Shown one piece after another: positions 33,526 to 61,736 of a stretch of 64,000 nt of DNA; the stretch's first letter is position 1, and every line of letters begins with the position of its first letter. The notes beneath the pieces are model-generated. The model searched no databases, was not told where the DNA came from, and worked only from the letters and a program-made list of their open reading frames with translations. Location: positions 1,070 to 65,069 of the forward strand of contig JAGVZI010000007.1 of assembly GCA_018302705.1 (NCBI GenBank). The letters are read 5' to 3'. Position numbers and translations under genes: made by a program. This DNA is from Candidatus Woesearchaeota archaeon. Lineage in GTDB: Archaea > Nanobdellota > Nanobdellia > SCGC-AAA011-G17 > ARS1403.

Positions 33526-33676
33526 GCGGGGATGCCGGAGTGGTCAAACACGAAAAACACAGAAGTGGACCTAACGGGCTAGGTTCAGGAAGAAAAAAAG
33601 AAGGCTGAGCTTAGGCCTACGCTGTGAGAAACCTAGTGGCTTAGTGCCTTCGCAGGTTCGAATCCTGTTCCCCGCA
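33526..33676 (+). tRNA. tRNA-Leu(CAG) with introns at 21/22 (33548..33573) and 37/38 (33590..33630)
   Basis: Removing both gives an 84-nt type II tRNA: acceptor GCGGGGA/TCCCCGC, D stem CCG/CGG, anticodon arm CTAGG-TTCAGGA-CCTAG. Confidence 0.88.
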
Positions 33677-34420
33677 AATCATTATCAAAAAAATCCTAAA
33701 CCACACAAAAATAAAAACTCCTAAAAAACTTCCGAGCAAGGAAATCAGCCAGTTGTTAAAAAGCTCGACAAGGTAGGAGCTGGCAAAAAGTAAAGCCCAT
33801 AATGATAAAAAGCTGGGAATAAAAATATAAAATTTCTTTACCGCCAATTTTATCCCTTTCAAAAAAGAATTAAGCACCTTATTATCAAGAGAAAAGTAGC
33901 TGAGATTAATCCAAACAAAGTAAAAAAACAAAATTAAAACCGCAGCAAACCTTCCATAACTAAACCCATATCTATAAAGTAGATAAAATGCACCGGCAAA
34001 AACCAAAAACCAGATTAGAGTAAGCAGGTAAAAATTCAGAAAGTATTTCAGATTATAGTCATGAAGCAGTTTTTTCTTATCAACAATGTTGGCACTCCAT
34101 TTCCAGAGAATGCCGTGAAAGAACCCGAAAAGAACAAAAGTAATTGCAAAAAACAAAATGGCAATTCTAAAAATCTTGCTCAGCAGCTCAGAAAGATAAA
34201 CCAAGCTCCTATATATATAGCCTGCATCAGCCCCTTCTTCAACAACGAATTCATCCTGGAAAGTTCTCAGTTCATTCATCTTTTCAGAGGCAGAAGTAAT
34301 GCTAACCATGGCGCTAACTGCCATCAACAGGAAGAATAAAAACTCCAATCCATATACGGCAAGAATCTTCTTATTATTCAATATTTTCCAGCTTTCCAGA
34401 AATAATTTTAAAAATTTCAT
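33641..34420 (-). CDS. Polytopic membrane protein (about 6 TM)
   Basis: Hydrophobic segments throughout; last codons overlap the tRNA-Leu 3' end antisense. Confidence 0.75.
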   Translation of the reverse strand: MKFLKLFLESWKILNNKKILAVYGLEFLFFLLMAVSAMVSITSASEKMNELRTFQDEFVVEEGADAGYIYRSLVYLSELLSKIFRIAILFFAITFVLFGFFHGILWKWSANIVDKKKLLHDYNLKYFLNFYLLTLIWFLVFAGAFYLLYRYGFSYGRFAAVLILFFYFVWINLSYFSLDNKVLNSFLKGIKLAVKKFYIFIPSFLSLWALLFASSYLVELFNNWLISLLGSFLGVFIFVWFRIFLIMICGEQDSNLRRH

Positions 34421-34427
34421 ATTAAGT

Positions 34428-37400
34428 TTATGTCGAAGCAACAGCGGTTAATTCTCTTCTCCAGGCTTCTGCATGTCCTAAAACAGCAGGAACATAATTC
34501 TGCGTTTCAGATGGCAATGAAGATTTGCATTCATTAAAAGGTTTACTTTGACATTTGCTATTAACCTTAGTTGGTCCAGCATTGTAAGCAGCCAGAGCTA
34601 ATTCAATGCTTTTATATTTGTCAAGCTGAATTTTGAAATACCTCACTCCAATGTAAACATTATCCTTCCAATTTGAACGGGATTTCTCTGGTGCAAATGG
34701 ATTTTCTGCAATTAATTCTAAGTTAACATCGGCCTCAGCATCGGGCATTATCTGCATCAATCCAACTGCCCCTGCTGGAGATCTTGCTTGTTTATTTCCT
34801 CCAGATTCTTGAGTAATCATTCCCAAAATCAAAGGCAATGCATTCTCATTTCCAAAAACCTCATTCACAGTATTCTTAATATAAACATAAGTTTCACCAC
34901 CAGGATTTTTAGTTTCTGTAAAAACCCCCCCAACTGTAGGTTCAGTAGAATACTCTTCTTGAATTTCAGGTGTAACAGGTTGGGCTGGGGCCGCAGGAGT
35001 AGCTACTGCAGGAATTACCTCTTTTCTAAGCACACATCTCCCATCCTGGCAGGCACTTCCTTCAGGGCAAAACACAGTCTCGGCAACACATTGTTCGCTT
35101 ACGCAAGAATACTCAATCAATTTTCTATCGCCATCGCTCCCGCAAGCCTCTCTCTCAACTTTAACACCGTTATCAGTATATATGCAAGCCTGTTTCTTTC
35201 CAATGTCTCTTCCGCCAAAGTCATTGCATCCGGAAAATGCAGGATCGTAAATCACAATGCTTTTTTCTTTTATTGAATTCGTAGTTCTGCTAGTCGCATC
35301 AGTGCATATCTGATCGCTCAAAGTTCCGCTTTTAATCAGGCTGAATTTTAGATTGTATTGATCCGTAGGAGGAACATCAACCCCGATTCTTGCTTCAGGA
35401 ATATTCCACACATTGAAATTAAGCCCGTCTTCAATATCATGCGCAATAAACCTCTTAGTTTCTCTAAAGCCACTGGCCCTGCCAAGGATTTCAACCTTGA
35501 TTTCAACATCTTTCTCAGGCCTTTCTATATCAATTAGATTTTCATTAACAACCTCTATCTTGTCGCCATATTTATATGCAGGAATATCAGAGCTAGCACC
35601 TTTAAAAGTAATATCCTTATTAAACACAGCCCTGCAATCACTCTTAACAGTTTCGCTGCTATAAGCAGTTCCTAAATCAGCAACATTAGGATCAGTTCCC
35701 TCTCTAAACTCCCTTACATTCGTTCTTCCATCTCTGTCATTATCTAGCAGGGCATCGTTTGCATCATTAGGATTCAACTTATTAGCATTCTCCCAATCAT
35801 CACTCATTCCATCTTTGTCAGCATCAGCAAAGTCATCCTCACCATATCCAGTAAGCTCTGCTATTATTCCGCTTCCTCCTCTTCCAGGAGGGAAGCAATC
35901 CTCTTTGGCTTCACTAGGAATATTAACGCAAGCCTCTGTGTAATCAACTTTATCCAAAAACTGCAGATACCCGCTGTCATGATCTCCTGCTCTGTCAAGG
36001 AAGATTTCTTTATTTAATAATTGGCTTCTTCCCCCGCCGGGATTCTTTAAATAAATCTCATACCTCATATTATCCCTTCCAGCCAATATCATCCAGTCAA
36101 TTTGGTATTCAAACACAGGCTCCTTCAATGGAGTTATATGACTCACTTTGGAATTCCAGTTAATGGAAACACTAGTCCCGATAAAGGGCCTGTTCAAATC
36201 AAAGTTTGCAAAAGTATCAATATTAGGAAGCCTTTTGTATATTGCCAATGAGCAGATAGTTTTAATAATCGGCAGTTCTGCATATCCAACACCGCCGCCA
36301 GCCCCGGTCCTGGCAAGCTCAGCCAAATCTCCTCGAGCAAATTCCTTGGCATCATCCTTGCCTTGCTTAGCAGCCCCCTTTAAACTGTCAGCTTCCCTTG
36401 CCTCCAAAAGCGAACCTTCGATTCCAGCTCCACCTAAGTTATTAGCAGATCCACTCCCAAACAATTTACCAAAAGCCTTTTTAATAAAACTAGTCCCGAA
36501 GAAAGCCTCTACTTCTTGTGTAACAAAAGTACAAATTCCATAATTCAATAATCTATCGCACTGCCCGGTAAATTTTCTTCCAGCCCTGGCATCATTCAAG
36601 CAGAAATTCCATTCCTGAGCAATCGCTCTTAGCTGATATAATTTAGTTAATATCCCACTAATGCAACCGCAACCAACACTCAAAAGCAAACTATCTTGGA
36701 TTCTCGTTGCTCCTTGTCCAAAAGTTATTGGTTGATTAATATTCTTCGGAATTCTTCTATCAGTTCCAGAAACAGTTTTTATTTCCCCCTTCTCATTCGT
36801 CTCCCAAACAGGCGTTTCCTTAATCCCGTCATTGTCCAAATCTAGTTTCTCCTGAATCTCCTCGGTTCCAATTTGAATATTCGCAACCCTGCACCAGTTC
36901 TTAGGGCAGACAGCAACAGCGCACATGCTCCTTCCAGAAATTACAAAGCTATTGCTTTCGCTCCTGCCTCTAGTTGTAAATGCAACCCCCCTCAAACCCT
37001 TAGGTCCGTACCAAATAAAATCAGCAAGGTCAAAAAAATTGCCTGCAAAATACTTTATTATCGGAGTAGCGAGCTTAGCAGCAAAAACAGCAGCAATGGA
37101 ATAAACGCACAGTTGAAAAGTAAGGCTGAATGCTTTTTCAAATTTAGGAATTAAATCCTCTGTGAATTTTATAATGTCTTCAGATAATTCAAGCCCGGCA
37201 TCAAGCGCAAATTCAGGAGGCTGCACAGCAACAGTGTCTATCGGAATATTAATAGTTATTTGATCTATTTCAGTCGGATATACAGGATCACAGCCAATCT
37301 TCTTCCCATTTTCATCTCTTTTAACTATGCATTGATTAGTCCTGACAGTGCAAGTAGTTTCAATCTCATCAATCCCGCTTATCCTGTCAGAAGGCAAAGA

Positions 37401-38045
37401 AGTCAAATCCTTTGCAACAACATCACCCTCTCCTCTTTTGAATACTCTGAACTCAATTAATCTCTTAGTAGTGTCCTTGGCATCCTGTGGAAGCACCATC
37501 ATTCTTGCATTCAAAAAGCTTCCAGGAATCCTTCTATTCTGCTCCCCGCTTCTGCTGACAATTCCAGTGCCAGAATCGCAGCTAACAAAGACATCTCCCA
37601 ATTCAACGTCTTCAGCTTCAAATCTGGAATTAAAAGCAAGCTTGATTGGCTGATAAACCAAAACACCATTTAGAGAATCAGTTAGCCAATTCACTTTCAA
37701 AATCTCAGGCTGCAATCCTCCATCTCTCGAAACGCTCCAGAAATCATATTTCCTGGCTACCTGATCAGGAGAGCATCCGCTGTTCAATTCTCCCCTTCCA
37801 ACATTGCTTCCACTAGTCCCCAGGCACAAGTCGCCATAAAGAGTGTCGTCGCATCTTAGCTGATTATATCCAGTTTTGCCTTCATGATAAGGATCATTTC
37901 TAGGCCTGTCACAAACACCGTCGCTATCAAGATCATATACATTGCTAGACTCAGGTTGGCTTTGTGATTGCGCAAAAGTAATTGAAGTATTTAATGAAAT
38001 CCCGATTATCAAAGACATTAAAAACAAAGCAGCTACTCTCTTCAT
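34428..38045 (-). CDS. Large secreted protein with Ca-binding DxDxDG repeats and C-terminal lytic transglycosylase (SLT) domain
   Basis: Signal peptide; DADKDGMSD/DNDRDG repeats; ITQESGG, GAVGLMQIMP, ALAAYNAGP, ETQNYV motifs at about 34450..34900. Confidence 0.88.
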   Translation of the reverse strand: MKRVAALFLMSLIIGISLNTSITFAQSQSQPESSNVYDLDSDGVCDRPRNDPYHEGKTGYNQLRCDDTLYGDLCLGTSGSNVGRGELNSGCSPDQVARKYDFWSVSRDGGLQPEILKVNWLTDSLNGVLVYQPIKLAFNSRFEAEDVELGDVFVSCDSGTGIVSRSGEQNRRIPGSFLNARMMVLPQDAKDTTKRLIEFRVFKRGEGDVVAKDLTSLPSDRISGIDEIETTCTVRTNQCIVKRDENGKKIGCDPVYPTEIDQITINIPIDTVAVQPPEFALDAGLELSEDIIKFTEDLIPKFEKAFSLTFQLCVYSIAAVFAAKLATPIIKYFAGNFFDLADFIWYGPKGLRGVAFTTRGRSESNSFVISGRSMCAVAVCPKNWCRVANIQIGTEEIQEKLDLDNDGIKETPVWETNEKGEIKTVSGTDRRIPKNINQPITFGQGATRIQDSLLLSVGCGCISGILTKLYQLRAIAQEWNFCLNDARAGRKFTGQCDRLLNYGICTFVTQEVEAFFGTSFIKKAFGKLFGSGSANNLGGAGIEGSLLEAREADSLKGAAKQGKDDAKEFARGDLAELARTGAGGGVGYAELPIIKTICSLAIYKRLPNIDTFANFDLNRPFIGTSVSINWNSKVSHITPLKEPVFEYQIDWMILAGRDNMRYEIYLKNPGGGRSQLLNKEIFLDRAGDHDSGYLQFLDKVDYTEACVNIPSEAKEDCFPPGRGGSGIIAELTGYGEDDFADADKDGMSDDWENANKLNPNDANDALLDNDRDGRTNVREFREGTDPNVADLGTAYSSETVKSDCRAVFNKDITFKGASSDIPAYKYGDKIEVVNENLIDIERPEKDVEIKVEILGRASGFRETKRFIAHDIEDGLNFNVWNIPEARIGVDVPPTDQYNLKFSLIKSGTLSDQICTDATSRTTNSIKEKSIVIYDPAFSGCNDFGGRDIGKKQACIYTDNGVKVEREACGSDGDRKLIEYSCVSEQCVAETVFCPEGSACQDGRCVLRKEVIPAVATPAAPAQPVTPEIQEEYSTEPTVGGVFTETKNPGGETYVYIKNTVNEVFGNENALPLILGMITQESGGNKQARSPAGAVGLMQIMPDAEADVNLELIAENPFAPEKSRSNWKDNVYIGVRYFKIQLDKYKSIELALAAYNAGPTKVNSKCQSKPFNECKSSLPSETQNYVPAVLGHAEAWRRELTAVAST

Positions 38046-40033
38046 TCAAACCTCACCCCTAATTTATCAAAATGTTTTTCACTTAGTGATTTAACATCCG
38101 AATTCTCAATATAGTCCTCAAAGTTTCTCGGAATTCCTCTTGATAATGCCAGCACAATAATTTTGTCTTTTTCAAGATCATCTAGGCTGATATAAGTCTC
38201 AAAATCTGCGCCTCCAAGGAAAACGCCTTCAACTTTTTGATCAGGAACCTCTCTCCCTTGAAATTCACCTCCAGGGATCGTAATCTCCTCATTAAGAATC
38301 AAATCAACAGCAACATTGTATTGCTCCTCAAACAGCAAAGGAGTTTCTAAAATCTCGTTCCCGTTAAACAAAAGGGCAAAACCTTCCTTAAAGCTGCCTC
38401 TTCCAAGGTCTAAAACAGTGAATCTAACGCTTGCCTGCTCATTCTCCATCAGCTCTCTCTCAAGAACATTCCCGTCTTTCAATTCCAAAACTCTGACTTC
38501 AACTTTTTTATTGACATAGGGCTTCATCGCAGCAAAAACGCTGTTCCTTCCAGTATTATACGTATCCAATTCCTGGTAAAACTCGCCGTATCCATCCTTG
38601 GACAAAATAATCTCTCCTCCCCTGCATAAAGGAAATTCCTCTTCTAAAACAGATCTTCCATTTTCAATTTTAGTTTTGCCTACAACGCAGTTATTAACCC
38701 CGCAGACATACACAACATTTACATCATCCAATGCATTGCTTGTCAGGGCATCAATGCTTTCCACGACAACAGCCTCGCTTAATTTTTGATTCTCATCGCA
38801 GAATAATCCGCCAGCTTCATCCTCCACGCTAACAACGTCGCCATCAATAAGTCTCCCTCCAAAGTTGTCAATTATATAAATCTCAATTGGAAACCTAAAT
38901 GCAAAATTGTCATTCTCTAAATTCACCATCAGCGGATATTGCAAAGTATATCTAAAATTATGATTTGTAAAGCAAAACAGCGGGATAAAAGGCAGCCCCA
39001 GTTTCAAGGTGCTGGGCTTCAACACATTCCCGTCTCGGGGATAAACATCCAAAAAGAACGCCCATCCAGGATTATAATTAAAACTCACAATTGTATCATC
39101 GTGCTCTCCAGAAAAAACATCCCCTATAATCAAGCTGTTATAAAACTCTCCTCTTACATCATTATTTGCTCCTTCAACTCTAAAAAGCCTGGAGATAGTT
39201 CCAAGATATTCCTCTATATTTTCCCTGACTTCATTCAATGTCCAAGTATTAGGATTGCATTCATAATTAAACTCGGCAATTGGAGGTATTGAAATCAGCG
39301 AATTTTTATCCTTGGCATAAGCAGCTATCAAATCAATTGTCATGGCTTCAAAAGGTGCATTCCCGATCTCAGATCTTCTAAGCTCTCTGTTAACAATGTC
39401 AACAGCCATATTATATAGCATCTTCAAATCAATTGGAACATCTATTCCAATGTAGTCGGAAATAGGAAAAATATTTTCTTTAATACCAACGTCGATTTCG
39501 GATTTTAATTTCACAGAAATCTTCCCATTTAATATTCCAGCTTCGCTTTCAATCTGTTTGGTGCTAAAGTCATAATCAGGAAATTCATTAAAGCCACATT
39601 CACTATTAAATCTCCTGTCAATATATCTCTCAAGTTGATCTTCCATTTCTTGAATAGTAGGGACATCAACATTTCCCCTTCCATAAATCCAATAAGGCGC
39701 CTTGTAAATGGGATCAGTCCGCAGGTAAGCTCTTGGATTAAAGCTTATAGAATTAGGAATCTCTATATATCCGCCTTGAAATCCCAGCAGCTCAACTCCA
39801 TCCCTCGCAATTCTCTCAATACAGTTATTAGCATAGTCTACAACGCCCTTAGCCTGCTCAGGGACAACGCTTACTCCAAACAGCTCACTCTCAATTTTCT
39901 GCCTGAAGCTCTCGTTTTGTATATACCCGATAAAGAATGCAGCAAATAATATGACAATCCCGGCAATAATAAATAAGGTAACCTGCCCTCTTTTCCCGAT
40001 CCCTCTTTTCCCGACGATATTCATTTTATTCAT
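38042..40033 (-). CDS. Class III signal peptide (prepilin-like) protein, 663 aa
   Basis: KRG/QVTLFIIAGIVILF N-terminus; related to 54604..55404. Confidence 0.8.
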   Translation of the reverse strand: MNKMNIVGKRGIGKRGQVTLFIIAGIVILFAAFFIGYIQNESFRQKIESELFGVSVVPEQAKGVVDYANNCIERIARDGVELLGFQGGYIEIPNSISFNPRAYLRTDPIYKAPYWIYGRGNVDVPTIQEMEDQLERYIDRRFNSECGFNEFPDYDFSTKQIESEAGILNGKISVKLKSEIDVGIKENIFPISDYIGIDVPIDLKMLYNMAVDIVNRELRRSEIGNAPFEAMTIDLIAAYAKDKNSLISIPPIAEFNYECNPNTWTLNEVRENIEEYLGTISRLFRVEGANNDVRGEFYNSLIIGDVFSGEHDDTIVSFNYNPGWAFFLDVYPRDGNVLKPSTLKLGLPFIPLFCFTNHNFRYTLQYPLMVNLENDNFAFRFPIEIYIIDNFGGRLIDGDVVSVEDEAGGLFCDENQKLSEAVVVESIDALTSNALDDVNVVYVCGVNNCVVGKTKIENGRSVLEEEFPLCRGGEIILSKDGYGEFYQELDTYNTGRNSVFAAMKPYVNKKVEVRVLELKDGNVLERELMENEQASVRFTVLDLGRGSFKEGFALLFNGNEILETPLLFEEQYNVAVDLILNEEITIPGGEFQGREVPDQKVEGVFLGGADFETYISLDDLEKDKIIVLALSRGIPRNFEDYIENSDVKSLSEKHFDKLGVRFE

Positions 40034-40155
40034 TTCTTCCTGCTAACTTTCTCCTTGATTAATTCAATCAGCTCTGTATTAATATCTCTTTTAATAGAAT
40101 CCTTGAATTTCTCCCAAAGTTTCTCGTCTTCAATAAGAAGAAGGTATTTTTTCAT
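40030..40155 (-). CDS. Small RHH-like protein (41 aa)
   Basis: Not in ORF track; MKKYLLLIEDEKLWEKFKDSIKRDINTELIELIKEKVSRKK; ATGA overlap with the prepilin-like gene. Confidence 0.65.
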   Translation of the reverse strand: MKKYLLLIEDEKLWEKFKDSIKRDINTELIELIKEKVSRKK

Positions 40156-40419: not shown

Positions 40420-41692
40420 ATGAACAGAACTGAATTTTACAACAGGAAACAAGAACTAAAACAGACCATTGCCAAATAAGCTTTACTTTTATGTGGATTT
40501 GGTGGAAAGGCAAGGAATATTAGACTCTTTATCAAAAACAGTTCAAGAGCAAATGGGTGAAATGAGAAAATTTGTAGATTTTAGCGATTTTCTGGATTTG
40601 ATAGCTTTAAAATCAAATAATGAGTTTGTCTTGGTAATTGATGAATTTCAGAGATTTCTGGAAATCTCGCCTCAGTTTATAACAGAACTGCAGAATTGCT
40701 GGGATCAAAAATTAAAGAACAAAAAGATTATGCTTATTCTTGTAGGCTCTTCAATTGGAATGATACAAAAAATAACCAGCAGTAAAGCAGGAACATTGTA
40801 CGGAAGAGCAGTAAAAATTAAAATTGCTCCATTCAAATACTCTGACTTCAGGTTGATGTTTAATGAATTAGGCGAAGAGGAAAAAATAGTTGCTTATGCA
40901 GTATTCGGAGGCACTCCTTATTACCTTGAAAAAGCAAAAAAGATAGAAGGCGACATCCACAAAAGAATATTTGGGCTATTTTTAAAAAAAGGAGCAGAAT
41001 TATTTGAAGAGCCTAAAAACCTATTAGAATATGAAAATGTGCGTATACACTCCAAATACAATTCTATATTGCAGGCAGCTTCTGCAGGAAAAGAAAGCCT
41101 CAAAGAAATTCAAGATTTTACAGGGATTAATGCAAATATAATGCCGGCATATATAAAAAAGCTTGATGAACTGCTGGACTTAATGGGGAAAAAAGACCCG
41201 GTATTAGGCAAGGAAAGGCTTAGAAGATACGGCTTAAAAGACAATTTCTTTAAGTTTTGGTATAGGTTTATATTTTCAAACCAGACTGCTCTAAACATAG
41301 GCAACATAAAGCTTGTAGAAGAAGACATAAAAGAAAACCTTAATTCTTACACTGGAAAAGTGTTTGAAGAAATATGCAAAGAATTACTTATTACTTATAT
41401 AAATAAAAAGATAGATAGCTATATTCTGGACTTTGAAAACATTGGTAGCTGGTGGAGCAGGACAGGCGAAGAAATAGATATTGTCGCATATAATCACAAA
41501 TCAAGAAACATACTGGTTGGTGAGGTCAAATGGGCCAATGAATTGGTCGATATAGATGTTGTTGATAATTTGATGAAAAAATCTAGACTAATAAATTTTG
41601 CAGGCACTGAAAGGGCGCTTACTAGGATAAAAGAAATAAATGGGGTGCATTTAAATCTGAATGATATTGAAAAAATGTTTGATGAAATCTAA
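40420..41692 (+). pseudogene. Archaeal ATPase (ATPase_2/DUF234-type), degenerate
   Basis: MNRTEFYNRKQEL start stops at 40479; the downstream frame keeps Walker B IDEFQ, GGTPYY and EIDIVA but has no Walker A. Confidence 0.7.
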
Positions 41693-41809: not shown

Positions 41810-42241
41810 CTAAGTACAAATCTTGAATTCAACTTTTCCGTTCCTCAAAATAAACGGGCTAGCGCTTATGCTGCTCTTGCAATCATTACCTAGAGAAACA
41901 AGATCATGATCTCCACTCACAATCAGTCTATATTTTTCATTGGTAAATATTCCTTGGGTAGGATCCTCAAGGTAATACATCAAATTGCTGCTAACATCAT
42001 CGCAATTATTAGTTAAGATACATTCTTCGATCAAGTCTTTCATCTGCCTTTTCTCATCATCGTCTTCAACATGCACTTTCATCAGGGCATTCAAAGCGCT
42101 ATTAGCTCTCAAGTTGCTCCTAATTAACCTGCTTTCATTTTCATCATCAGAGCTTTTAATTTTTACAAAAAAAATCAGTGCAAAAACAAGCAGTAGAACA
42201 ACTACAACCAATCCTATAATCTCGCCCTGCCCTCGCTTCAT
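41810..42241 (-). CDS. Class III signal peptide (pilin-like) protein
   Basis: MKRG/QGEIIGLVVVVLLLVFALIFF. Confidence 0.78.
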   Translation of the reverse strand: MKRGQGEIIGLVVVVLLLVFALIFFVKIKSSDDENESRLIRSNLRANSALNALMKVHVEDDDEKRQMKDLIEECILTNNCDDVSSNLMYYLEDPTQGIFTNEKYRLIVSGDHDLVSLGNDCKSSISASPFILRNGKVEFKICT

Positions 42242-42744
42242 AACTCACCTCTTATTTTCAGGATGCCTATTTTATACCTTTTTGATTCGGGATAATACAA
42301 TGAAACAGGAACAGAATAAATCCCGCCATTTGAGCCTTCACTGCCAAATATCTGGAATTTATTCTTATCAGGGTAAGAATTTCCAGCATCAGTAGGAACT
42401 TCAATCCAAATTCCTTTCACATTACCAAACAAATTCCCGTAGTATTCCTTATTGTCATTAGCATTCCTAACATCAGAAAATCCTTCCAACTTAACAGCAT
42501 CCAAGCACTCACTCTCAACTCCCCCTCTGCTGCATCTGAACTCAGGCAAGCCAATAATAACGCTCAATAAACTATTATATTTTTGATCAAGCAAAGTCGC
42601 TTTAGTTTCCTCTAATTCCAAATAAGTAAATCTGAAATAAAGAATTAAGCTAAATAACAGCAACAAAATAAAAACTATCAAAACCATTGTAGTAATCCCT
42701 ATTTCTAGCTGCCCTCGATTATTAGTATACACCTGCACATCCAC
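42238..42744 (-). CDS. Class III signal peptide (pilin-like) protein
   Basis: NRG/QLEIGITTMVLIVFILLLLF. Confidence 0.78.
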   Translation of the reverse strand: MDVQVYTNNRGQLEIGITTMVLIVFILLLLFSLILYFRFTYLELEETKATLLDQKYNSLLSVIIGLPEFRCSRGGVESECLDAVKLEGFSDVRNANDNKEYYGNLFGNVKGIWIEVPTDAGNSYPDKNKFQIFGSEGSNGGIYSVPVSLYYPESKRYKIGILKIRGEL

Positions 42745-43672
42745 CCCCTATTAATCTATTATTTGCAGATTCAATTTCACTAACTTTACCAAAATTAAAT
42801 GAATCAAATGGTTCTATATCATTATCAGTATTATATACTGCATCATTATATCTGCCACCACTAATTGGGCAATTCTCAAAAGGGATATGATTTATTTTCT
42901 CATCATAAACATTATTCACAATCTTAAACCTATTAACAGCAGCTTTCTTCACACAATCAAACTCCTCTTTGCTATCTGTAAAAACGGCCCCCATCATCAT
43001 AGCTTTCCCATAGAAGAAAGATCTTTTTTTATCTTTAAAGCAAATATATCCTTTGACATCTTTTCCAGTAGCATCTTTATCATAATAAATCATTTTATCA
43101 TATGTTTTTCCGTCTGCAGTTAATCTAGAACCAAAATGAGGGCAATCTCCTTCAATCATATCAGAAGACAAACTAGAATCCTGAAGAAAATTTATTTTAA
43201 CATCTCCAGGAAGTGAAGAGCTTAACCATTGTGGGAGTTCAAAATCAGGATCATAATCTAATTCATACCTCTTATCCCATAAATAAACAAAATTAGCAAC
43301 TCTAAAAGGAACATTCCAGCTTGCAGTCGCAACATTTATCTTGTCGCTTTTAATTTTCTCAGGAGCAAAAATTATTTTTCCCCAGACATCTTTCCCGTCT
43401 CTATCATTTACCTTGAACCATTGTCTTTTATCCCCTTCATCGCATTTAAATTCCAGCTCAACTCCTTTCCCAAAATCCAAAACACTTTTAGTTTCAGTAG
43501 TTTCATATTGAGAAAACATAACATCCAATTCTTCAGCAACAACTTTAGCAGTTATCTTCCCAAACAAGTCAGTATGCTGCACAGCAAAATAAATAAGAAA
43601 AGAAAAAATCAAAACCCCGGCAACTATTGAAAATATCCAGTCAAACATAACCGCAAATCCTTTTTTATTCAT
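42722..43672 (-). CDS. Class III signal peptide (pilin-like) protein
   Basis: MNKKG/FAVMFDWIFSIVAGVLIF. Confidence 0.75.
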   Translation of the reverse strand: MNKKGFAVMFDWIFSIVAGVLIFSFLIYFAVQHTDLFGKITAKVVAEELDVMFSQYETTETKSVLDFGKGVELEFKCDEGDKRQWFKVNDRDGKDVWGKIIFAPEKIKSDKINVATASWNVPFRVANFVYLWDKRYELDYDPDFELPQWLSSSLPGDVKINFLQDSSLSSDMIEGDCPHFGSRLTADGKTYDKMIYYDKDATGKDVKGYICFKDKKRSFFYGKAMMMGAVFTDSKEEFDCVKKAAVNRFKIVNNVYDEKINHIPFENCPISGGRYNDAVYNTDNDIEPFDSFNFGKVSEIESANNRLIGGGCAGVY

Positions 43673-44558
43673 ATATTGCCTCTTTTTTCAACTTATCAAG
43701 CAATGTAAATGTCTCTTTGTCAAATTTTGAAAATGCAAACCATTTTTTTCCTAAATCTTTCAAAGATGCTCCAAAATGATATGCTTCCTTATTATCTATA
43801 ATAATAAACCTGTCGTGTGATAATTTGAACTCTCTAACATCAATAGGAGGATATTGAGAATTATGTTTTTTTAAATCCAATAATAGCTGTTTGGATATTT
43901 CTTTAGTGAATATTGTAACCTTTACGTTATTCTTTCTTTTATTGAATAATGTTAAAACAGAATCATCAATAAAGTTATCAATTAAAACAATTGAATTATC
44001 GGCAGTTCTTACTATATCTGAAAAGAATTTATATGCATCAAAAATCTGACCATCAAAAAATATTCCTTTTTCTGGTTTTATCTCTTTGCTTTGGATGATG
44101 TCAAATATTTGGTCAATTTTTTTATCGCTTTCAATCTGTTTTTTTTCAATAACATCCATTCTTTGAAATAGTTGAGAATTGAGAGAAATAAACTTCCTCA
44201 TTGCCACGAATGCCCTCATAATTTGAATGTTTACTTCAATCGCTTTGTCGCTGTTAAGAACGCTTGAAAGATTTGCAACTCCTTGTTCTGTAAACGCATA
44301 AGGGAGTGCCCCTCCTAGATGTTTTTTAGAAGGTATCACATTTTGTGATACCATAACATCAACCTCTTTTTCAGTTAAAATAAACATAAAGTCAGGAGGA
44401 AACCTATTTTTGTTTCTATTTACTGCCTGTTTTAAGACTCTTGTCTCAATAGCATAAAGTTTGGCCAAATCCCTATCAAACATTACTTGAACACCTCGAA
44501 TAGTATAAATCTTATTCTTAATCTCATTCTTGTCCATAATAGTTAATTCATCTTTCAT
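43665..44558 (-). CDS. ORF6N-domain DNA-binding protein
   Basis: IYTIRGVQVMFDRDLAKLY, RFPPDFMF, PYAFTEQGVA; C-terminal SHDRFIIID. Confidence 0.88.
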   Translation of the reverse strand: MKDELTIMDKNEIKNKIYTIRGVQVMFDRDLAKLYAIETRVLKQAVNRNKNRFPPDFMFILTEKEVDVMVSQNVIPSKKHLGGALPYAFTEQGVANLSSVLNSDKAIEVNIQIMRAFVAMRKFISLNSQLFQRMDVIEKKQIESDKKIDQIFDIIQSKEIKPEKGIFFDGQIFDAYKFFSDIVRTADNSIVLIDNFIDDSVLTLFNKRKNNVKVTIFTKEISKQLLLDLKKHNSQYPPIDVREFKLSHDRFIIIDNKEAYHFGASLKDLGKKWFAFSKFDKETFTLLDKLKKEAIYE

Positions 44559-45047
44559 TTAACCTTTAGTTATATTAATTCCTTTAACAACGCCCTCGTT
44601 CTTGAGATTAATGGTTAAAGCTCCATTTGCAACATCAAAGCATTCAGGATTATTATCAAGAGTTATCTTAGTTGACATATTGAATCTATTTTCTTCATAA
44701 AGATTTAAAGGCCCGACAAAAACATCACTAAAGTCTTTTAATTTATCAACAAGGCCTCCATCATTATCCGGAACATTTCCCTCAACAAAGTTTCCGGTTT
44801 CATTTACAAAGCATACCCATCTAGCATCACCCGGTAGCAAAAACCTCTCCTCTCCAGAACTTCCTCTATCAAGATAGTAATACTGGCTTAATTTTTTATC
44901 CAAATCATTAAAAAAATTTACAACGAGTACATCATCCTTCAAGTTTTCTGTTTTCTTTATCAGCTTGATTCCAAAAAACAAAATAGAAGTTGCAACAATC
45001 AAAACAAAAAGCCATACAAAAATTTGCTGTGTCTGTCCTCTTTTCAT
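44559..45047 (-). CDS. Class III signal peptide (pilin-like) protein
   Basis: MKRG/QTQQIFVWLFVLIVATSILFFG. Confidence 0.78.
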   Translation of the reverse strand: MKRGQTQQIFVWLFVLIVATSILFFGIKLIKKTENLKDDVLVVNFFNDLDKKLSQYYYLDRGSSGEERFLLPGDARWVCFVNETGNFVEGNVPDNDGGLVDKLKDFSDVFVGPLNLYEENRFNMSTKITLDNNPECFDVANGALTINLKNEGVVKGINITKG

Positions 45048-46348
45048 TTTTCAAGCAGCCATTTCCATAATGGGATATATTTTACCATTTTGTTTCCAAT
45101 AGCCTCTTCCCCGCCCTTATCATAAGTAATAATTAAGAGATCTCTGCATCTCAACTCCTTGCTAGCCTTAACTAAAGCTTTAATCTCTCTCTCTTTAGTA
45201 TATCTATCATCTAAAGAATAAGATACTTGTATCAGTTTTTTAACTTTCCCTTTTTCAACGACTACAAAATCCACTTCTTTCCCGTCAATGGATTTATAGT
45301 AATAAATTTCCTTTTCCCTTCTAAGAAGTTCTACAAAAACCAAATTTTCCATCAATTTCCCCTTCTCAGAGATCCCATTTACAGTCAGAAGTCCATTATC
45401 TATAATGTATATCTTTGATAGGGATTGCTCCTTTTCTCTGTAAGAATAAGAGAACCTTTTTAATGGAAAAACAAAAAAAACGTCGTTTAATGCACCCAAA
45501 TAGTTATATAGGGAATCCTTGCTTGCTTTAATACCGTTCGACTTGATAAATTTATAAAACTTATGGATTGAAAACTCTCTCGAAGCAGAATCAATTAGGG
45601 AACTTATTAAAATCCTTAAAAGTTTTATATTCCTTATTTTATATCTTTCAACAACGTCCCTAAAGATAATTGTTTCAACAATATCTAATAGAATTTTATT
45701 TCCTTCCTGGGGATACAAGACAGCTTCAGGATAACCCCCTTTTTCAATATATGTTTCTAAATTCTTTAAAATATGAATCTTTTCAGCTTTTGAGAGATAC
45801 TTGCCCATCCCTATCTCTTTAGTGCCTAAATATTCCGAAAAGGAAAATGGCAAAATCTTATAGGTTATCGTCCTTCCTCTCATTGAGGTTGCAATTTCCC
45901 TGCTTAAAAGCTTGGAAGAAGAACCAGAAATAAAAATCTGGACCTTTTCATTGTCAATCAATGTTCTAACAGATTTCTCCCAGCCATTCACATTTTGGAT
46001 CTCATCCAAGAAAAGCCACAAGCTTTTCTTTTCATTTTTTGGGTATATCTCAAAAAGAACGTCCATCATATTGATGAGGTCTCCGCCTTCAACGCCTTCC
46101 AAATCTCCTCTTTCAAAATTTACATAGAGCACTTGTGTAGTATCTGCCTTAAAGGAACTGGAATTCAAAATTTCTTTAATCATCTGGAACATTGCAAATG
46201 TCTTCCCAGATCTTCTAGGACCGATTATTGAAATTGCTCTTCTCAGGGGAATCATCTTAGGTATTTTTACATTTCTTATTACAAGCTCTGGAAGTTCTTC
46301 GCTGTTAAAATCCTTTATTATCTCTCCCCATTTTTCTCTGCTTATCAT
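45044..46348 (-). CDS. AAA-family ATPase (AAA_14 plus DUF4143-type)
   Basis: GPRRSGKT, FLDEIQ, SGSSSKLL, GGYPE, EVDFV. Confidence 0.9.
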   Translation of the reverse strand: MISREKWGEIIKDFNSEELPELVIRNVKIPKMIPLRRAISIIGPRRSGKTFAMFQMIKEILNSSSFKADTTQVLYVNFERGDLEGVEGGDLINMMDVLFEIYPKNEKKSLWLFLDEIQNVNGWEKSVRTLIDNEKVQIFISGSSSKLLSREIATSMRGRTITYKILPFSFSEYLGTKEIGMGKYLSKAEKIHILKNLETYIEKGGYPEAVLYPQEGNKILLDIVETIIFRDVVERYKIRNIKLLRILISSLIDSASREFSIHKFYKFIKSNGIKASKDSLYNYLGALNDVFFVFPLKRFSYSYREKEQSLSKIYIIDNGLLTVNGISEKGKLMENLVFVELLRREKEIYYYKSIDGKEVDFVVVEKGKVKKLIQVSYSLDDRYTKEREIKALVKASKELRCRDLLIITYDKGGEEAIGNKMVKYIPLWKWLLEK

Positions 46349-46427: not shown

Positions 46428-49400
46428 TTAAGGATTAATCCTCACTACTCCCATCTCATTGCCCCACAAATCCTCGCATCTGAAATAATAGCTTCCGCTA
46501 GTAGTAATAAGTTGCTTAGCCCTATTTGTAGTATCCTTTCCAACACCTTGCCATCGGCTTTCATCAGCAGGAACAGAATCGCCAGTTGCAATTTCACACT
46601 CAGCCTCCTCGCTGACAGTTATATACTTGTTGCCTTCAACAGTAACTATCTGCCTTATCTCAGGAGCAATTTTATCTTGCAGAACATTGACAGCAAAGTC
46701 CTGCTCAGCAACTTGCCCAGCGCTATCGCTGCATTCAGCTTTAATGTTGTAAACACCATCGGCATTGACACTAATATTGGCAGTATGCACAAGCGCTCCA
46801 GATCCTAAATTTATTTTAGCTGCATTAATTCGAGCAGAGCCTATTGTAGTGTAAGTGCATTTAACGTCGCCAACACCCCCAACAGTCGCTGTAGCAGTTT
46901 CAATTATCCTTTTTCCATAATTTCCAACAGGAAGAGAGAATAAAATGCTCAGCTCTTGAGACTCAGGAACTTCGATATTGAAATTAATTCTTCTTAATGG
47001 GGTTAGTCCGTCAGAAGCTTGGCATCTAATATAATATTCATGACTTCCAACATTAAGGTTTCTCAAAATTTTACTATATCTTGTAGCGCCTCCGAATACC
47101 CTTTCATAATCCATAGCCCCATCATAATCATTCGGATCAAATCTCTCTTCTAGCTGTCGAGTAAATCCTTTTCTATAATAGCAAGTTGCAATTCCATTTT
47201 GATCAGGGCCGCCTCTCAATTCCAGGAAAAGCTCAGGTCTTATTGTTTGTACATTACCGCTAGGACCTACCTGTCCCAAGATTAAAGATGAAACAACAAC
47301 ACCAGGTTGACCTCCAGGCTTGCTATTAGGATCTAAAGGATTTGTTCCAGCATCAACTTCTTCTCCGTCGCTAAATCCATCTCCATCGCTATCTCTTCTA
47401 TCAGGATCAGTGCCGATCTCTTCTTCCTCATCTTTTGTCAATCCATCTCCATCATTATCAGAATCGCCATCAGTAGTAATAGAAGCAACCAACACTCTCA
47501 ACAATCCAGATTTTTTATCTCCAGCTTCAACATAGTACTCGCTTCTAGGATCAAATCCATCATCCACTTGAATCGCAGCAGTCCATTCAATAATAGCACC
47601 CTCAGGAGCAGGAATTATAATTCTTTTTTCATCTACAGTATCGTCTATCTGGCCCCAGTCAGTTATAAACACATCCTTCTCTTTTATTTTATAGTTAATA
47701 GCATCTCCTGCTCTGCAGTTATTTCCCTCTATTAATATGTAAGACTTACTTCCACTTTGAATGCTTGCAATATTAGTCCCGCTTATATCCTTCCAGCTCA
47801 CTGATTTAACAGAGCAAACATCTCCTGTAGGCGGCGGTGTTTCTGGTGGCTCTTCCCCACCAGCTGAACTTACACTTATTCTTATTGTTGCCTCTGCTCT
47901 TTCTCCATTTCTATCTGCTGCTCTAACTTTAGCTGTATAACTTCCAGCATCTGAATAAGTATATCTTATTGAACCGCTAGTTATTATTGTTTCAAATATT
48001 CCGTCGTTATTAAAGTCCCAAGAATATGTAAAAGGTGAATTTCCATTTGTAACTGCCGTCGTAAACTCTACTTGTAATGGTGCATCTCCGCTTGTTGGAT
48101 TAGCAGCTATTTGAATATTAAATATAGTGTCTTCTTCCTCTTCTTTAATCTCTTCACATACATTTCCTATCCCATCATTATCGCTATCAGCTTGATCAGC
48201 ATTGGCATTATTTGGACAATTATCCCTGTTATCTGGAATGCCATCACTATCAGTATCTGCATTAAAAGAATTTATCTTGACAGAAGCAGTATCATCATCT
48301 CTCAACTTTCCATCAAAAACAGTCAACACAACTCTATAATCGCCAGCAGCAGTATATTCGTTGCTTGGCAAAGCTCCGCTTCCTCTTTTACCGTCGCCAA
48401 AGTCCCAGTCATAAGTCAAAGGATCTCTATCAACATCATTGCTATTGCTTCCATCAAAGTAAACTCTAACTCTTCCATTAGCATTAAGAGTTGCTTCCTT
48501 ATCGTCTCCAGCATTAGCAACAGGAGCCTGATTGCCAGAAGTATCATAAGGATTCACTTGAACATTTGCCTTATCTTCATTACTCAAACCGCCTCTATCA
48601 GTTACTTTCAAAGAAACATCGAATACATCAGCTTTCCTATATTCATGTTTCACTACAGACCCTCTTGCTTCAGCACTTCCATCGCCAAAGTTCCAAGCAT
48701 ATTCCAAAGGCAATCCTTCAGGATCATTACTATTTCTCCCATCAAAAACCACTTCAACTCTATTATTTGCATCTAAAGATACATCCTTATCTTCGCCGGC
48801 ATTAGCAGTAGGAGGATCATTTTCAAGATGATTATAAGCATTAATTTGTATGCTAATCTCATCAGTATCTCTCCCGCCTTTATTATCGTCGACAGTCAAT
48901 ACAACATCATATTTTCCATTAAGATCGTATACTTTACTTGGTCTCACTCCCCTTAATCCATTGCTCCAAGAATATGTTAATTGATCATTATCAGGATCGC
49001 TACTTCCGCTTCCATCAAACTGCACAGTAATTCTATCATCAGAATTTAAAGAAACTTTTTGATCTTCGCCAGCATTAGCAACAGGATTATTATTTATTCC
49101 ACCACCAATAACATTTATAGTAGTAGTTCCTTCTCCAACGTCACCATCATTATCTCTTACTAAAACTTTTACAGTGTAACTACCCGCCTCGCTATAAACT
49201 CTAGTAGGATTTGAATTACTTGAGTCTACAACTTCATAGTTTCCATTATTATCATAATCCCAAGAATATTTATAAGGAGCATTTCCATCCTTGACAGCAA
49301 CGCTGAATCTCACTGTCAAAGGAGATTTTCCAGAAGAGGGATCAGCACCTACAGAGAGAATTTCAGGAACTGTGTCAATACCTCCAGGATTAGTTCCGCG

Positions 49401-52400
49401 AGGATCTACATGAATATTTAGAGTGTCTTCAGCTTGTTTATCCTTGCTATCCTTAACAACAACTTTGGCAACATAATCTCCATCTGCAGTATAGGTACGA
49501 GATTTAATGTCAGGCACATTACTATACTCAAAATTCCCATCATTGTTAAAGTCCCATGAATATCTATAAGGGGCATTTCCATTTGTTGTAGCAACATTGA
49601 ATGTAACTGCCAAAGGAGCATCTCCAGAAGTAGGTCCTCCTCCCAATGTAACAACAAAGTCTCCTTCTGTTGGAGGTGTTGTTACAGCAGGACAATTATC
49701 TCCAATATCAACACAATTATTATTCGAATCATAAATTCCAGGACAACTATTTACAGTGCAACTTCCTCCAGGTATTGGCTGAGTAGAACTTCCGCAAGAA
49801 CTAACATCAAATCCACTGCAATCACTTTCGCATCTCAAACTTCCAGCACTAAATCCAAAATTACTGCAACTTTTTCCATTTAATAAACTGCCATCACAAG
49901 TCTCTCCAGCATCTAATCTATCATTGTCACAATCAGCAGGATTTTGAGGAGGTTGTTGAGTCGGACAATTTGGTTCGGTTTTAATGCAAGTTAAGGCATT
50001 ATTATATCTCCCTTCGCAATTATTAGCATCCTTACAAACTTCTCCCGCTTTAGCACCAGGAGGAACAGGTTTCTGTTTTATTTTAATTATCTGGGATTTC
50101 TTCTGAGCAGAAGCGCTTATTATTTCACCATTAGCAGCAACTAGTTCAGGATCCTCATCTCCATATCTTCCATTTGCATCTTTCTGCCATGATAAAGTTA
50201 TAAATTCAACATCGTAGTAACCGCCACCACTACTTTGTCTATCTAATTTCAATGTCCTCGGGAAATCCATAAAAGAAATCTGCTCATAAACATCCTCTCC
50301 CAAAACTCTCTCATAATCATACAAATCAATTACAACATCAACATTATTGCATTGCTCATTCCCTTTAACTTTTAATGCAATTTCAGTTCCTTCTTCTATT
50401 GAAGCTTCATTGGAATAAGGCTGACCTCTTTCTAAATCATACCATTTTACTTCTGTTATCTCGCAACCAGCAGACAATCCACCACCAACATCAGAAACAC
50501 AAACTCCAGCATTATTAGGATCATCATTAAATCCAGTAGCACACCCATATCCGCATTTATTCTCTCCACTCCACTTGCATCCAGAATCTTTAGCGCTTAA
50601 GCAGACAGCTTGGTTCTGATCAAAATAATCATTATCACATTTTATTGTGCAACTTCTCTTCTTAACACATGTTCCATCATTATTAATGCCTTCAGGAGTT
50701 TCAGAACAGGTCTCGCATAAAGCCTCAATGCATTGTCCAATCTGTCTGCCATTTTGAGTATTCTGATCATTGCAGTCCAAGGCATCTTCAACACCATCAT
50801 TTTCCTGATCGCTCAGGCATAAAGGATTTGGCTCTGTTGCACAATAAGAAGTTCTATATTCCTTAATAACACTAGGGCAATTTGCAGTAGAGCAGTAACC
50901 ATTAACACAATTCTGTCTTACACTATTTAGTTGTTTGTTGCATAAAAATTCCTGGCTTTGAACTTCAGCGCAATAAGCATCTCCAGGACACTGAAGACAT
51001 ACAGTAGCAGCATTATCGGCTGTGCAAGCAACAGCGCCTACAGGAGGGGCTATATATTTTTCAAATTTAATATTTAAAACAGCATTAGCAACATTCTCAA
51101 GATCATCTATAGCCTCGCATCTGACAGTGATTCGGTAATCTCCATTTGTCGAAAAAAAATCAAAGCTCTGTTTATGTATGTTCCTATCCTCATACCCCGG
51201 ATCAGCATCTGTGCCGAAAGGGACTCTCTGGATAGATACATCATCATAAATGTACGAATAAGAACACATAGCTCCCCGGCCCATGCCCCCAGAAGTTCTT
51301 ACCTCCAAGACATCAGTCTGGCGGATAGTAGCCCCTTCAGTTGGGCTAGTTATATCTATTTGTAATGGAGTAGCTCTATTAATAACATAGCCGTAAGGAA
51401 CCGGATTCCTATTATTCCCCTCATCCTTGCATGCAAAATAATAATTATTAACTCCGTCATTGACATTAACATCTAAACTGCAGGATTTAAAAAATGAACC
51501 GCTATATCCAGAAGGTAAATTAGAGGATCCTTCAGCAGAAATATCTCCACAATTAACTTGTTGCTGCATAGCATCAAACCCAATAAATTCATCGCTATAT
51601 CTGCAGCTCTCAACACCACTTAAATCACTTACAATAAATCCAATTGTAACAGCATTAGATTCAGAACTAGGCAAAGTATAAACATCGCTGCTTTGACCTT
51701 CATCTTTAGGATTGAATAAATGGATAACAGGAGGATCTGTATCCCCAACACCGTCTGTCAATCTAAATCTAACAAAATAATCTTCATTATTATCATTCCC
51801 GAAGAAATCGCTGCATTGAACGTAAAACACACAACCATCATCATCAGAGCATCCTAGCTTATCTTTTTCAGTCCAATCATCAAATGAAAATGGATAAAGA
51901 TGGTCTTTCCCATTGTACAAAGTTTGCAATAAGCCAACCTTTTTATCTCTCATATTTTCTAAGATTTTATCATATTTATTATCTTCACTCATCGAACTAG
52001 TCACGCCCTCCTGCAAATTAACTCCAAACAAGCCTCTTTCTGGAATAGGGCTCATTCTACAGTTTGAAACTTTATCTGTTGTTAAAATTAAACCATATTT
52101 CTTATCCTCAACAAGGTCTTTCACATCGCATCCGTTAATTCCAGGAGGAATCCCGCTGGGAAGAGTGCCTGCTCCTTGGCCTTGAATTCCAGTATCAGGA
52201 TTATAAGTTGGAAGCAAAGCAAATGATCTAGGCAAAGCTTGTCTACCTCTATTAAATTGTACAATATCCTGTTTGACTTGCATAGTTCCGATATCAACCA
52301 CACCGCATGTATTTATTAGAGGGGGGTTTTTATCAGCAATAGCTTCATCTAAACAAACCCCTTCACTGGCATCCCTAACTGTTGGCTCAAAAACACAGTT

Positions 52401-55404: not shown

Positions 55405-55538
55405 TTTTTCCTGCTCCTCTCAACTTTATCCTTAACAGCCTCGTTAATGAATTCTATCAAAGTTTTATTCTCCAGAACAGCAGCTAATTTAGCCTTTTTG
55501 TGCAGCTCATCCTCGACTTCTATATTCACTCTTGTCAT
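55401..55538 (-). CDS. Ribbon-helix-helix (CopG-like) protein (45 aa)
   Basis: Not in ORF track; MTRVNIEVEDELHKKAKLAAVLENKTLIEFINEAVKDKVERSRKK; ATGA overlap. Confidence 0.78.
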   Translation of the reverse strand: MTRVNIEVEDELHKKAKLAAVLENKTLIEFINEAVKDKVERSRKK

Positions 55539-60200: not shown

Positions 60201-60206
60201 TTTGAC

Positions 60207-61703: not shown

Positions 61704-61736
61704 TTTTTATTTGAATAGTTATGAAATTTCATCTTC

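Follow-up and report, generated by a model that had tools for sequence, protein, structure and literature searches.

What use is a large secreted protein that ends in a murein-cutting enzyme to an archaeon that itself shows no sign of a murein wall? This question is raised by a 64,000-nucleotide (nt) stretch of contig JAGVZI010000007.1 (hereafter, the window) from the Candidatus Woesearchaeota assembly GCA_018302705.1, in which a reverse-strand gene encodes a protein of 1205 amino acids (aa), here termed P0001. Our analysis showed that the C-terminal tip of P0001 is an SLT/GH23 family-1 lytic transglycosylase domain with conserved catalytic residues, that this tip is exchangeable and has moved between lineages, and that the gene lies in a conserved set of operons inherited vertically beside housekeeping genes. 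We consider it somewhat probable that P0001 is an enzyme presented on the cell surface or on a filament and cuts the bacterial cell wall on contact; both the association with a filament and the enzymatic activity are predictions.

The source of the window is a DPANN archaeon of the Woesearchaeota type. It contains genes for TFIIB, ribosomal protein S8e, LSM, PCNA, a tRNA-intron endonuclease, a diphthamide synthase, and an intein-containing FtsZ; its G+C content is 32-42%; and the full-length homologs of P0001 that carry names are assigned to 'Candidatus Woesearchaeota archaeon' and 'Nanoarchaeota archaeon'. An earlier note on this DNA had called the protein archaeal, and these marker genes and homologs bear it out. 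The window sequence was also found in groundwater and soil metagenomes of 2015-2016, exclusively in DNA runs.

The lytic transglycosylase tip of P0001 and its body

The gene and the parts of its product are as follows.

34428-38045, reverse strand: scaffold protein with SLT tip, 1205 aa (P0001), from the open reading frame (ORF) and its translation, with seven full-length homologs at 37-61% identity
37971-38045, reverse strand: Sec-type signal peptide, aa 1-25, from hydropathy, with the A-Q cleavage context kept in homologs
35841-37967, reverse strand: conserved body core, aa 27-735, with beta-sandwiches, a long-helix bundle, and many invariant Cys residues, kept in remote homologs of 27-39% identity
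35676-35840, reverse strand: thrombospondin type-3 (TSP3)-like Ca-binding repeats, aa 736-790, with DxDxDG motifs, from NCBIfam and BLAST matches of TSP3 type
35025-35675, reverse strand: distal beta-sandwich domains and Cys-rich stalk module, aa 791-1007, modelled by AlphaFold2 (AF2) with a predicted local distance difference test score (pLDDT) of roughly 65-85
34941-35024, reverse strand: Pro/Ala/Thr linker region, aa 1008-1035, the junction between the shared body and the differing tips, from the drop in identity and the lack of AF2 structure
34431-34940, reverse strand: SLT/GH23 family-1 lytic transglycosylase tip, aa 1036-1205, with the Glu1080 codon at 34806-34808, from profile, alignment, AF2, and Foldseek
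34783-34954, reverse strand: recombination patch of ~170 nt, from the tip start to the catalytic Glu, found by windowed nucleotide identity and pairwise alignment against the P0004 gene (locus L005)

The motifs on which the earlier note had relied were each located in the translation: ITQESGG at aa 1077-1083, AGAVGLMQIMP at aa 1091-1101 (GLMQ itself at 1095-1098), ALAAYNAGP at aa 1150-1158 (AYNAG itself at 1153-1157), and ETQNYV at aa 1180-1185. The definitions of motifs II-IV (G-L-M-Q, A-Y-N-x-G, and a Tyr in the last helix) follow the classification of Blackburn and Clarke. Pfam SLT (PF01464) matched aa 1068-1168 with an E-value of 3.1e-20 and 72.3 bits (gathering cut-off, 21.3), and NCBIfam lytic-transglycosylase models matched the same stretch, the best being that of a flagellar-assembly lytic transglycosylase. 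The top match of a phmmer search against the PDB was Escherichia coli Slt70 (1qsa), in which E1080-S1081 corresponds to the catalytic Glu478-Ser479 and Y1184 to Tyr587. An AF2 model of the full-length protein, built from 8 sequences, had an overall pLDDT of 55.5 and is confident only in parts; its SLT domain had a pLDDT of 70-87 and was matched by Foldseek to Pseudomonas aeruginosa Slt (5ohu; E 5e-6, probability 1.0) and also to Slt70 (1qte), MltE, MltC, and MltF. By the AF2 model and Foldseek, the tip has the goose-lysozyme-like alpha-helical fold. E1080, S1081, G1095, M1097, and Q1098 are invariant in the closest full-length homologs (n=8), and every SLT-tipped remote homolog has the catalytic E-S pair, even where the body is only 27-39% identical.

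P0001 therefore resembles Slt70 of E. coli and Slt of P. aeruginosa in its lysozyme-like helical fold, in its catalytic glutamate (E1080 = E478), and in having the E-S, GLMQ, AYNAG, and Tyr motifs within the C-terminal ~165 aa. However, its tip is only 24-27% identical to theirs over the structural alignment, and in place of the superhelical U and L domains it has a Pro-rich linker and an unrelated Cys-rich body of 1000 aa; moreover, it is archaeal, and its activity is predicted. These results suggest that the tip is catalytically competent and Slt70-like. Motifs, profile score, and fold were all concordant with the earlier reading of an intact lytic transglycosylase domain at the end of a 1205-aa protein. 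The same reading had placed the domain behind a Pro/Ala/Thr linker. Such a linker (PAVATPAAPAQPVTPE, aa 1012-1027, nt 34965-35012) does precede the SLT domain, although it lies just outside nt 34450-34900, the interval given in that reading, which holds the enzyme domain.

Proteins of this kind have been published. Searchable passages of Castelle 2021 (PMC8204110) describe large extracellular lytic-transglycosylase proteins of Woese- and Pacearchaeota, crediting Rinke 2013 and Castelle 2015 for earlier sightings, and a cluster, fam00969, with proteins of up to 3000 aa; the P0001 set may differ from this cluster or be narrower. Those of Vigneron et al. 2022 (PMC9723730) report from Woesearchaeota genomes a GH23 'large lytic murein transglycosylase' and suggest predation on bacteria. 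The central point of the earlier note is therefore correct but not new. As far as these passages go, P0001 agrees with the published proteins in its lineage, its size, its secretion, its SLT domain, and the proposed binding and degradation of bacterial walls, and the groundwater and soil metagenomes of 2015-16 in which the window occurs are the same kind of data. Peptidoglycan hydrolases are also called 'particularly prominent' in Nanoarchaeota in passages of Strock et al. 2025 (PMC12352652). The searchable passages on DPANN transglycosylase proteins make no mention of pili or pilins, of Amidase_3 or M23 alternatives, or of tip recombination, and in the literature searched, as far as its passages were accessible, we found no earlier account of the exchangeable cassette, the recombination footprint, or the conserved pilin-like operon described below.

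The seven full-length homologs align with P0001 from end to end, and the N-terminus is a Sec-type signal peptide (MKRVAALFLMSLIIGISLNTSITFA, followed by QS after the cleavage site). This is the sole segment whose family-mean hydropathy lies in the transmembrane range (Kyte-Doolittle value (KD) 2.33; internal segments, <=1.37). We found no convincing internal membrane anchor in P0001, its two internal hydrophobic segments having family means of 1.26 and 1.37, and sequence inspection revealed neither a sortase-type nor a PGF-CTERM-type signal at the C-terminus. Segment 305-323 was considered as a transmembrane helix (KD 1.75-1.87 in P0001); since its family mean is only 1.26-1.37 and it contains charged residues, we read it as a buried helix.

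An AF2 model of aa 27-735 from 20 sequences (pLDDT 70.5; predicted template modelling score, 0.47) consists of N-terminal beta-sandwiches followed by a bundle of helices of 21-48 residues that holds most of the invariant Cys residues. TSP3_bac is found in homologs P0006 and P0008. Foldseek matches of the distal domains (aa 791-1007) were weak and included RbmA and MG-domain proteins. The cysteines C940...C1004 are invariant, and the Cys-rich stalk module is duplicated in P0012, P0013, P0015, and P0019. Over the whole 1205-aa protein, Pfam at E<=1 matched SLT alone, apart from a Lysozyme_like hit below threshold at the same place, and it identified no recognised peptidoglycan-binding domain of the LysM, SH3b, or PG_binding_1 type. 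The body, of ~1000 aa, is lineage-specific, Cys-rich, and presumably disulfide-rich, with no recognisable fold or binding domain.

Exchange of the tip at the linker

An exhaustive phmmer search with the body only (aa 27-1010) yielded further relatives at 27-44% identity; most of the other matches, which ran to thousands, covered only the TSP3 repeat at query positions 713-765. The body is common to all relatives up to the invariant C1004, beyond which the tails diverge. This shared body (aa 27-1004) occurs with three SLT subtypes, with Amidase_3, with Peptidase_M23, or without a tip; the domain assignments of the tips were run on eight proteins (P0012-P0015 and P0017-P0020).

SLT type A tip: P0001 and P0004-P0007
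SLT type B tip (second SLT subtype): P0002, P0003, P0008, P0013, and P0015
SLT type C tip (third subtype): P0019
Amidase_3 tip (E 2.8e-29): P0012
Peptidase_M23 tip (E 4.6e-20): P0020
Extra Cys-rich modules only: P0024, P0027, and P0029
Tip domain without family assignment: P0017
No tip: P0014 and P0018

The linker region (aa 1008-1035), in which AF2 predicts no structure, marks the junction, and identity to the homologs falls there to 14-44%. Body and tip gave conflicting trees. The body tree pairs P0001 with P0002 (support 99) and then adds P0003 (99); the tip tree puts P0001 inside the group of P0004-P0007 (99/99). An approximately unbiased test on the tips rejected the body grouping with a log-likelihood difference of 121 (p 1.6e-67), the group for this test having been chosen after the identity table had been seen. 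The earlier suggestion of a modular enzyme tip on a structural scaffold is thus confirmed by homologs that bear different tips on the same body and by the conflict between the trees.

Comparison of the P0001 and P0004 genes located the exchange more closely. Their bodies have ~60% nucleotide identity and the remaining part of their tips 68-79%, whereas a tract of ~170 nt is about 97-98% identical with one 12-nt indel (98% for codons 1036-1075). The tract, which spans from just past the linker to the catalytic Glu, is a recombination footprint at the module junction. Outside the family, the nearest SLT domains are 35-44% identical, and the few of them with an organism name are all bacterial (Desulfovibrionales, Eubacteriales, and Halobacteriovorax). 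Since this identity is only 35-44%, acquisition from bacteria would be old rather than recent. These data are consistent with an original acquisition of the SLT tip from bacteria, which had been proposed earlier as probable.

The range of tips bears on the substrate. SLT, Amidase_3, and M23 enzymes share only murein as a substrate, and the occurrence of three unrelated murein-hydrolase classes on one scaffold therefore points to bacterial peptidoglycan, rather than chitin or S-layer glycans, as the most likely target. We regard this diversity as the best stand-in at hand for an enzyme assay on the substrate question. Recombinational exchange of the tips, in turn, suggests an arms race or matching to the host. 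A conserved body with a C-terminal enzyme swapped at a defined junction is also seen in polymorphic C-terminal effectors (Rhs and contact-dependent inhibition (CDI) toxins) and in phage tail lysins. However, these have no homology to P0001, and no immunity gene is expected or seen here; unlike the intracellular toxins of Rhs and CDI systems, the enzymatic tips identified in the P0001 family are all wall hydrolases, the P0017 tip being without assignment.

In the C-terminal 364 aa of P0017, a hydrolase is replaced by two Asp-rich repeats that resemble a dockerin/EF-hand pair (DLNKDGSVNEQD... and DLNGDKIVDFKD...). A domain of ~200 aa without assignment follows these repeats and may be a further kind of tip.

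The conserved operon and the genes that interrupt it

The P0001 gene is part of a longer locus that contains the following features.

33641-34420, reverse strand: protein of ~259 aa with six hydrophobic helices (six-transmembrane, 6-TM), from hydropathy
38042-40033, reverse strand: 663-aa prepilin-like protein with a class III signal-like N-terminus (GKRG followed by QVTLFIIAGIVILF...)
40030-40155, reverse strand: 41-aa ribbon-helix-helix (RHH)-like small protein, overlapping the start of the 663-aa gene, from translation, with RHH assigned by sequence pattern only
41810-43672, reverse strand: three prepilin-like genes (143, 168, and 316 aa), whose products have K/R-G-Q or K-G-F N-termini and a hydrophobic helix
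44559-45047, reverse strand: fourth small prepilin-like gene (162 aa), with a prepilin-like N-terminus
46428-55538, reverse strand: upstream half of the locus, with a 45-aa RHH-like ORF, a 266-aa prepilin-like protein, a 652-aa Cys-rich secreted protein, and a 2074-aa PKD/TSP3 adhesin, from Pfam and translation

The stop of the 663-aa gene overlaps the start of the P0001 gene by 4 nt, and the 6-TM gene lies 8 nt downstream of the P0001 gene. In the 663-aa protein, a hydrophobic helix comes after the class III (prepilin-like) signal, and class III signal-like N-termini were found on five partner proteins. To follow these genes among relatives, we use the loci L001-L008, of which L001 is a contig of a Woesearchaeota genome, L004 the locus of the most distant SLT homolog, L005 the locus of the P0004 gene (whose contig starts only at the small RHH-like ORF), and L006 the locus of the Amidase_3-tipped homolog. 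In L001-L007 the scaffold gene is directly preceded by one for an ortholog of the 663-aa protein (L008 has a partial, weaker match), and in L001, L002, L004, L005, L006, and L007 it is followed by one for an ortholog of the 6-TM protein, at 40-67% identity; the pilin-like/scaffold/6-TM trio is kept in every locus with flanks. Orthologs of the 143-, 168-, and 316-aa prepilin-like proteins occur in the same order in L001, L004, and L006, where the C-terminal ~290 aa of the 2074-aa protein are also kept, and 40-41-aa ORFs near-identical to the 41-aa RHH-like protein are present in L004 and L005. Overall, L001, L004, and L006 have the same gene order at this locus, as does L005 within the limits of its contig, with orthologs 40-73% identical. 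In L001, L004, and L005 the locus adjoins LSM, S8e, and TFB, although the orthologs there are only 37-60% identical. The conserved order and the fixed place beside housekeeping genes show that this is a vertically inherited chromosomal operon set and not a mobile element.

Three genes interrupt the locus in the window.

40469-41692, forward strand: ATPase_2/DUF234 gene
43665-44558, reverse strand: ORF6N gene
45044-46348, reverse strand: AAA_14/DUF4143 gene

All three are absent or differently placed in L001, L004, and L006 and are therefore insertions into the locus; they look like selfish or defence-type 'archaeal ATPase' insertions.

The 6-TM protein matched no Pfam family even at E<=5. It was considered as a prepilin peptidase and rejected, having neither a Peptidase_A24 or other Pfam match at E<=5 nor a GxGD motif. 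The 3' end of its ORF, at 33620-33680, runs into what appears to be the reverse complement of the T-arm and acceptor end of a tRNA (GGATTCGAACC); ARAGORN called no tRNA at 33620-33680.

The 266-aa and 663-aa proteins share the prepilin-like N-terminus IGKRGQVTLFIIAG and their first ~160 aa. This similarity and the generic TSP3 repeats were the only exceptions when the 266/652/2074-aa and 663/1205/266-aa cassettes were compared as possible paralogous copies, for which BLASTP was negative. Each of the two RHH-like ORFs, at 40030-40155 (41 aa) and 55401-55538 (45 aa) on the reverse strand, runs into the start of a prepilin-like gene, and their products are possible autoregulators of the two sub-operons. 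In the 652-aa secreted protein (52649-54607, reverse strand), aa 588-625, close to the C-terminus, gave a sub-threshold match to the bacterial SH3_3 domain (E 0.017; 15.7 bits, cut-off 27), and this weakly matching stretch may be a second murein-directed module.

Presentation of the tip and alternative roles

In the reading that we favour, P0001 would be exported by Sec and would fold into a stalk stabilised by disulfides and Ca, whose ~1000-aa body would present, beyond a flexible linker, an exchangeable peptidoglycan-hydrolase cassette at the C-terminal end. Its co-translated partners, the 663-aa prepilin-like protein and the 6-TM protein, would hold it at the cell surface or on a structure resembling a type IV filament, so that P0001 is probably retained rather than released; its physical association with the pilin-like proteins is suggested by analogy. 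On contact, the tip would cleave MurNAc-(1,4)-GlcNAc bonds locally in the wall of the touched bacterium, and the resulting opening or loosening of the wall could serve attachment, penetration, or feeding. Pfam pointed to no murein synthesis gene among the scanned window proteins; showing no sign of a murein wall itself, the archaeon would most likely direct the enzyme at the peptidoglycan of the bacteria that it touches.

A more specific reading, which we hold to be possible though rather doubtful, is that the whole ~22-kb locus encodes an 'armed' type IV filament-like host-contact apparatus composed of a prepilin-like complex, a PilY1-like scaffold, and an exchangeable slot for murein hydrolases. 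The four small prepilin-like proteins and the 663-aa protein would assemble into a priming or tip complex, from which the 1205-aa scaffold would be displayed as PilY1 is, and the recombination-driven cassette (lytic transglycosylase, amidase, or M23 endopeptidase) would be matched to the wall chemistry of the host or prey. A PilY-like adhesin has been described, in the passages at hand, for some archaeal type IV filament (T4F) systems (PMC13705601). As in the bacterial type IVa pilus operons that encode non-pilin tip adhesins of the PilY1/PilC type along with minor pilins and, as far as those passages show, of archaeal arCOG03511 (T4F subsystem 4A/4B), several small pilin-like genes and one large one precede a gene for a protein of >1000 aa with a Sec rather than a class III signal, and the layout parallels bacterial fimU-pilVWXY1. 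However, no sequence or fold similarity to PilY1 was detected (Pfam, E<=1; fold of aa 27-735, E<=1e-3; arCOG03511 was not in the comparison), and unlike PilY1 systems, the window proteins scanned include no filament ATPase or platform gene, so that the link to a filament is drawn purely from the layout. P0001 would therefore work like PilY1 rather than be a member of its family.

Several points weigh against a surface- or filament-presented enzyme that cuts bacterial walls. Filament ATPase, platform protein, and prepilin peptidase genes were all absent among the 36 other window proteins scanned with Pfam, and we know of no bacterial partner for this lineage. For the body (aa 27-735), Foldseek found no match in the PDB or BFVD at E<=1e-3, only generic immunoglobulin-like sandwiches. 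P0014 and P0018 have no enzymatic tip, and the body must therefore have a function of its own. GH23 includes chitinases as well, and the catalytic domain of the Ralstonia GH23 chitinase ChiC (3w6f) was among the Foldseek matches of the SLT domain (E 5e-5).

How P0001 is held is the point at which a first alternative departs, namely that it is a free bacteriolysin or scavenging enzyme, released to the medium and acting at a distance for competition or for the harvest of muropeptides and amino sugars, with the pilin-like neighbours reflecting co-regulation only. A Sec signal peptide with no convincing internal anchor and no sortase-type or PGF-CTERM-type C-terminal signal would suit such an enzyme; the secreted peptidoglycan hydrolases of Halogranum work from the supernatant (PMC12352652), and passages on the Woesearchaeota GH23 proteins propose predation or scavenging (PMC9723730). 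In searchable passages of the former paper, haloarchaeal peptidoglycan hydrolases kill bacteria experimentally, and Woldo and Danwoldo of Halogranum salarium resemble P0001 in being archaeal, secreted, and aimed at bacteria, with bacterial-type murein hydrolase domains and a catalytic domain that was replaced repeatedly. However, those proteins are small free toxins exported by the twin-arginine pathway and consist of a catalytic domain and a known peptidoglycan-binding domain, whereas P0001 has a giant lineage-specific body, a pilin-like operon, and no known binding domain. A conserved 1000-aa body with Ca repeats and a stalk would be costly for a diffusible enzyme in a reduced genome, and both the 4-nt overlap with the 663-aa gene and the retention of the trio in every flanked locus argue against it; we regard release as unlikely.

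The remaining alternatives concern the tip and the origin of the locus. Bacterial secretion and pilus loci often encode a dedicated lytic transglycosylase for their own wall, and the best NCBIfam match of the tip is a flagellar-assembly enzyme; P0001 could accordingly remodel its own envelope for filament passage, as do VirB1, BfpH, and FlgJ, or it could act on chitin, on an S-layer or other envelope glycan, or on pseudomurein, as the match to ChiC would allow. Yet all family-1 motifs (E-S, GLMQ, AYNAG, and Y) are present, the closest sequences and structures are those of Slt and Slt70, and sister proteins with the same body and the same operon carry Amidase_3 or M23, enzymes that cleave the peptide portion of murein and for which neither chitin nor S-layer glycans offer a substrate. 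Pseudomurein, moreover, lacks the MurNAc beta-1,4 bond, and the absence of a murein synthesis gene among the scanned proteins speaks against a role in the archaeon's own envelope; another target is improbable. Some members of the family have no enzymatic tip, and adhesion could be the core function of the body, with the tip serving as a catalytically silent, lectin-like module for murein binding. We consider this highly improbable, since no SLT-tipped homolog, even at 27-39% body identity, departs from the catalytic Glu-Ser or the other active-site motifs and since the replacement tips are other hydrolases rather than known binding domains. Scarcely credible is an integrated virus or mobile element with P0001 as a virion- or tail-associated lysin: matches to endolysins and lytic tail proteins in PHROG (E 7e-21 to 1e-13), the ORF6N gene, and the two 'archaeal ATPase' genes inside the locus would fit it, but the PHROG matches are confined to the SLT domain (aa ~1068-1198), and none of eight neighbouring proteins tested matched PHROG. 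We found no capsid, terminase, or integrase; the ORF6N and ATPase genes, missing or moved in relatives, are hence insertions; and the locus keeps its place beside LSM, S8e, and TFB in relatives with orthologs only 37-60% identical. A viral or mobile origin was rejected on the PHROG result.

To our knowledge, neither the hosts of Woesearchaeota and Pacearchaeota nor their attachment to them has been established. Few molecular clues suggest that some of these archaea live on bacteria rather than on other archaea; a surface protein that bears a murein-cutting enzyme is one of them and has been in the literature since 2013-2021. The exchangeable cassette, the recombination footprint, and the operon make this published, general hypothesis specifically testable, and the fixed pilin-like and membrane partners of the scaffold gene are named candidates for interaction. 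If the 'armed' filament were borne out, it would be the first molecular mechanism for episymbiosis or predation of an archaeon on a bacterium and a new functional class of archaeal type IV filament.

Two further features of the window lie outside the locus. In the FtsZ gene (7788-10025, forward strand), Pfam placed Tubulin and FtsZ_C on either side of Intein_splicing and LAGLIDADG_3, so that the intein which splits this gene contains homing-endonuclease domains of the LAGLIDADG type. At 59712-63996 (reverse strand), a run of genes encodes secreted or signal-anchored proteins of 162, 498, 157, and at least 583 aa with no Pfam family, which are probably more lineage-specific surface proteins.

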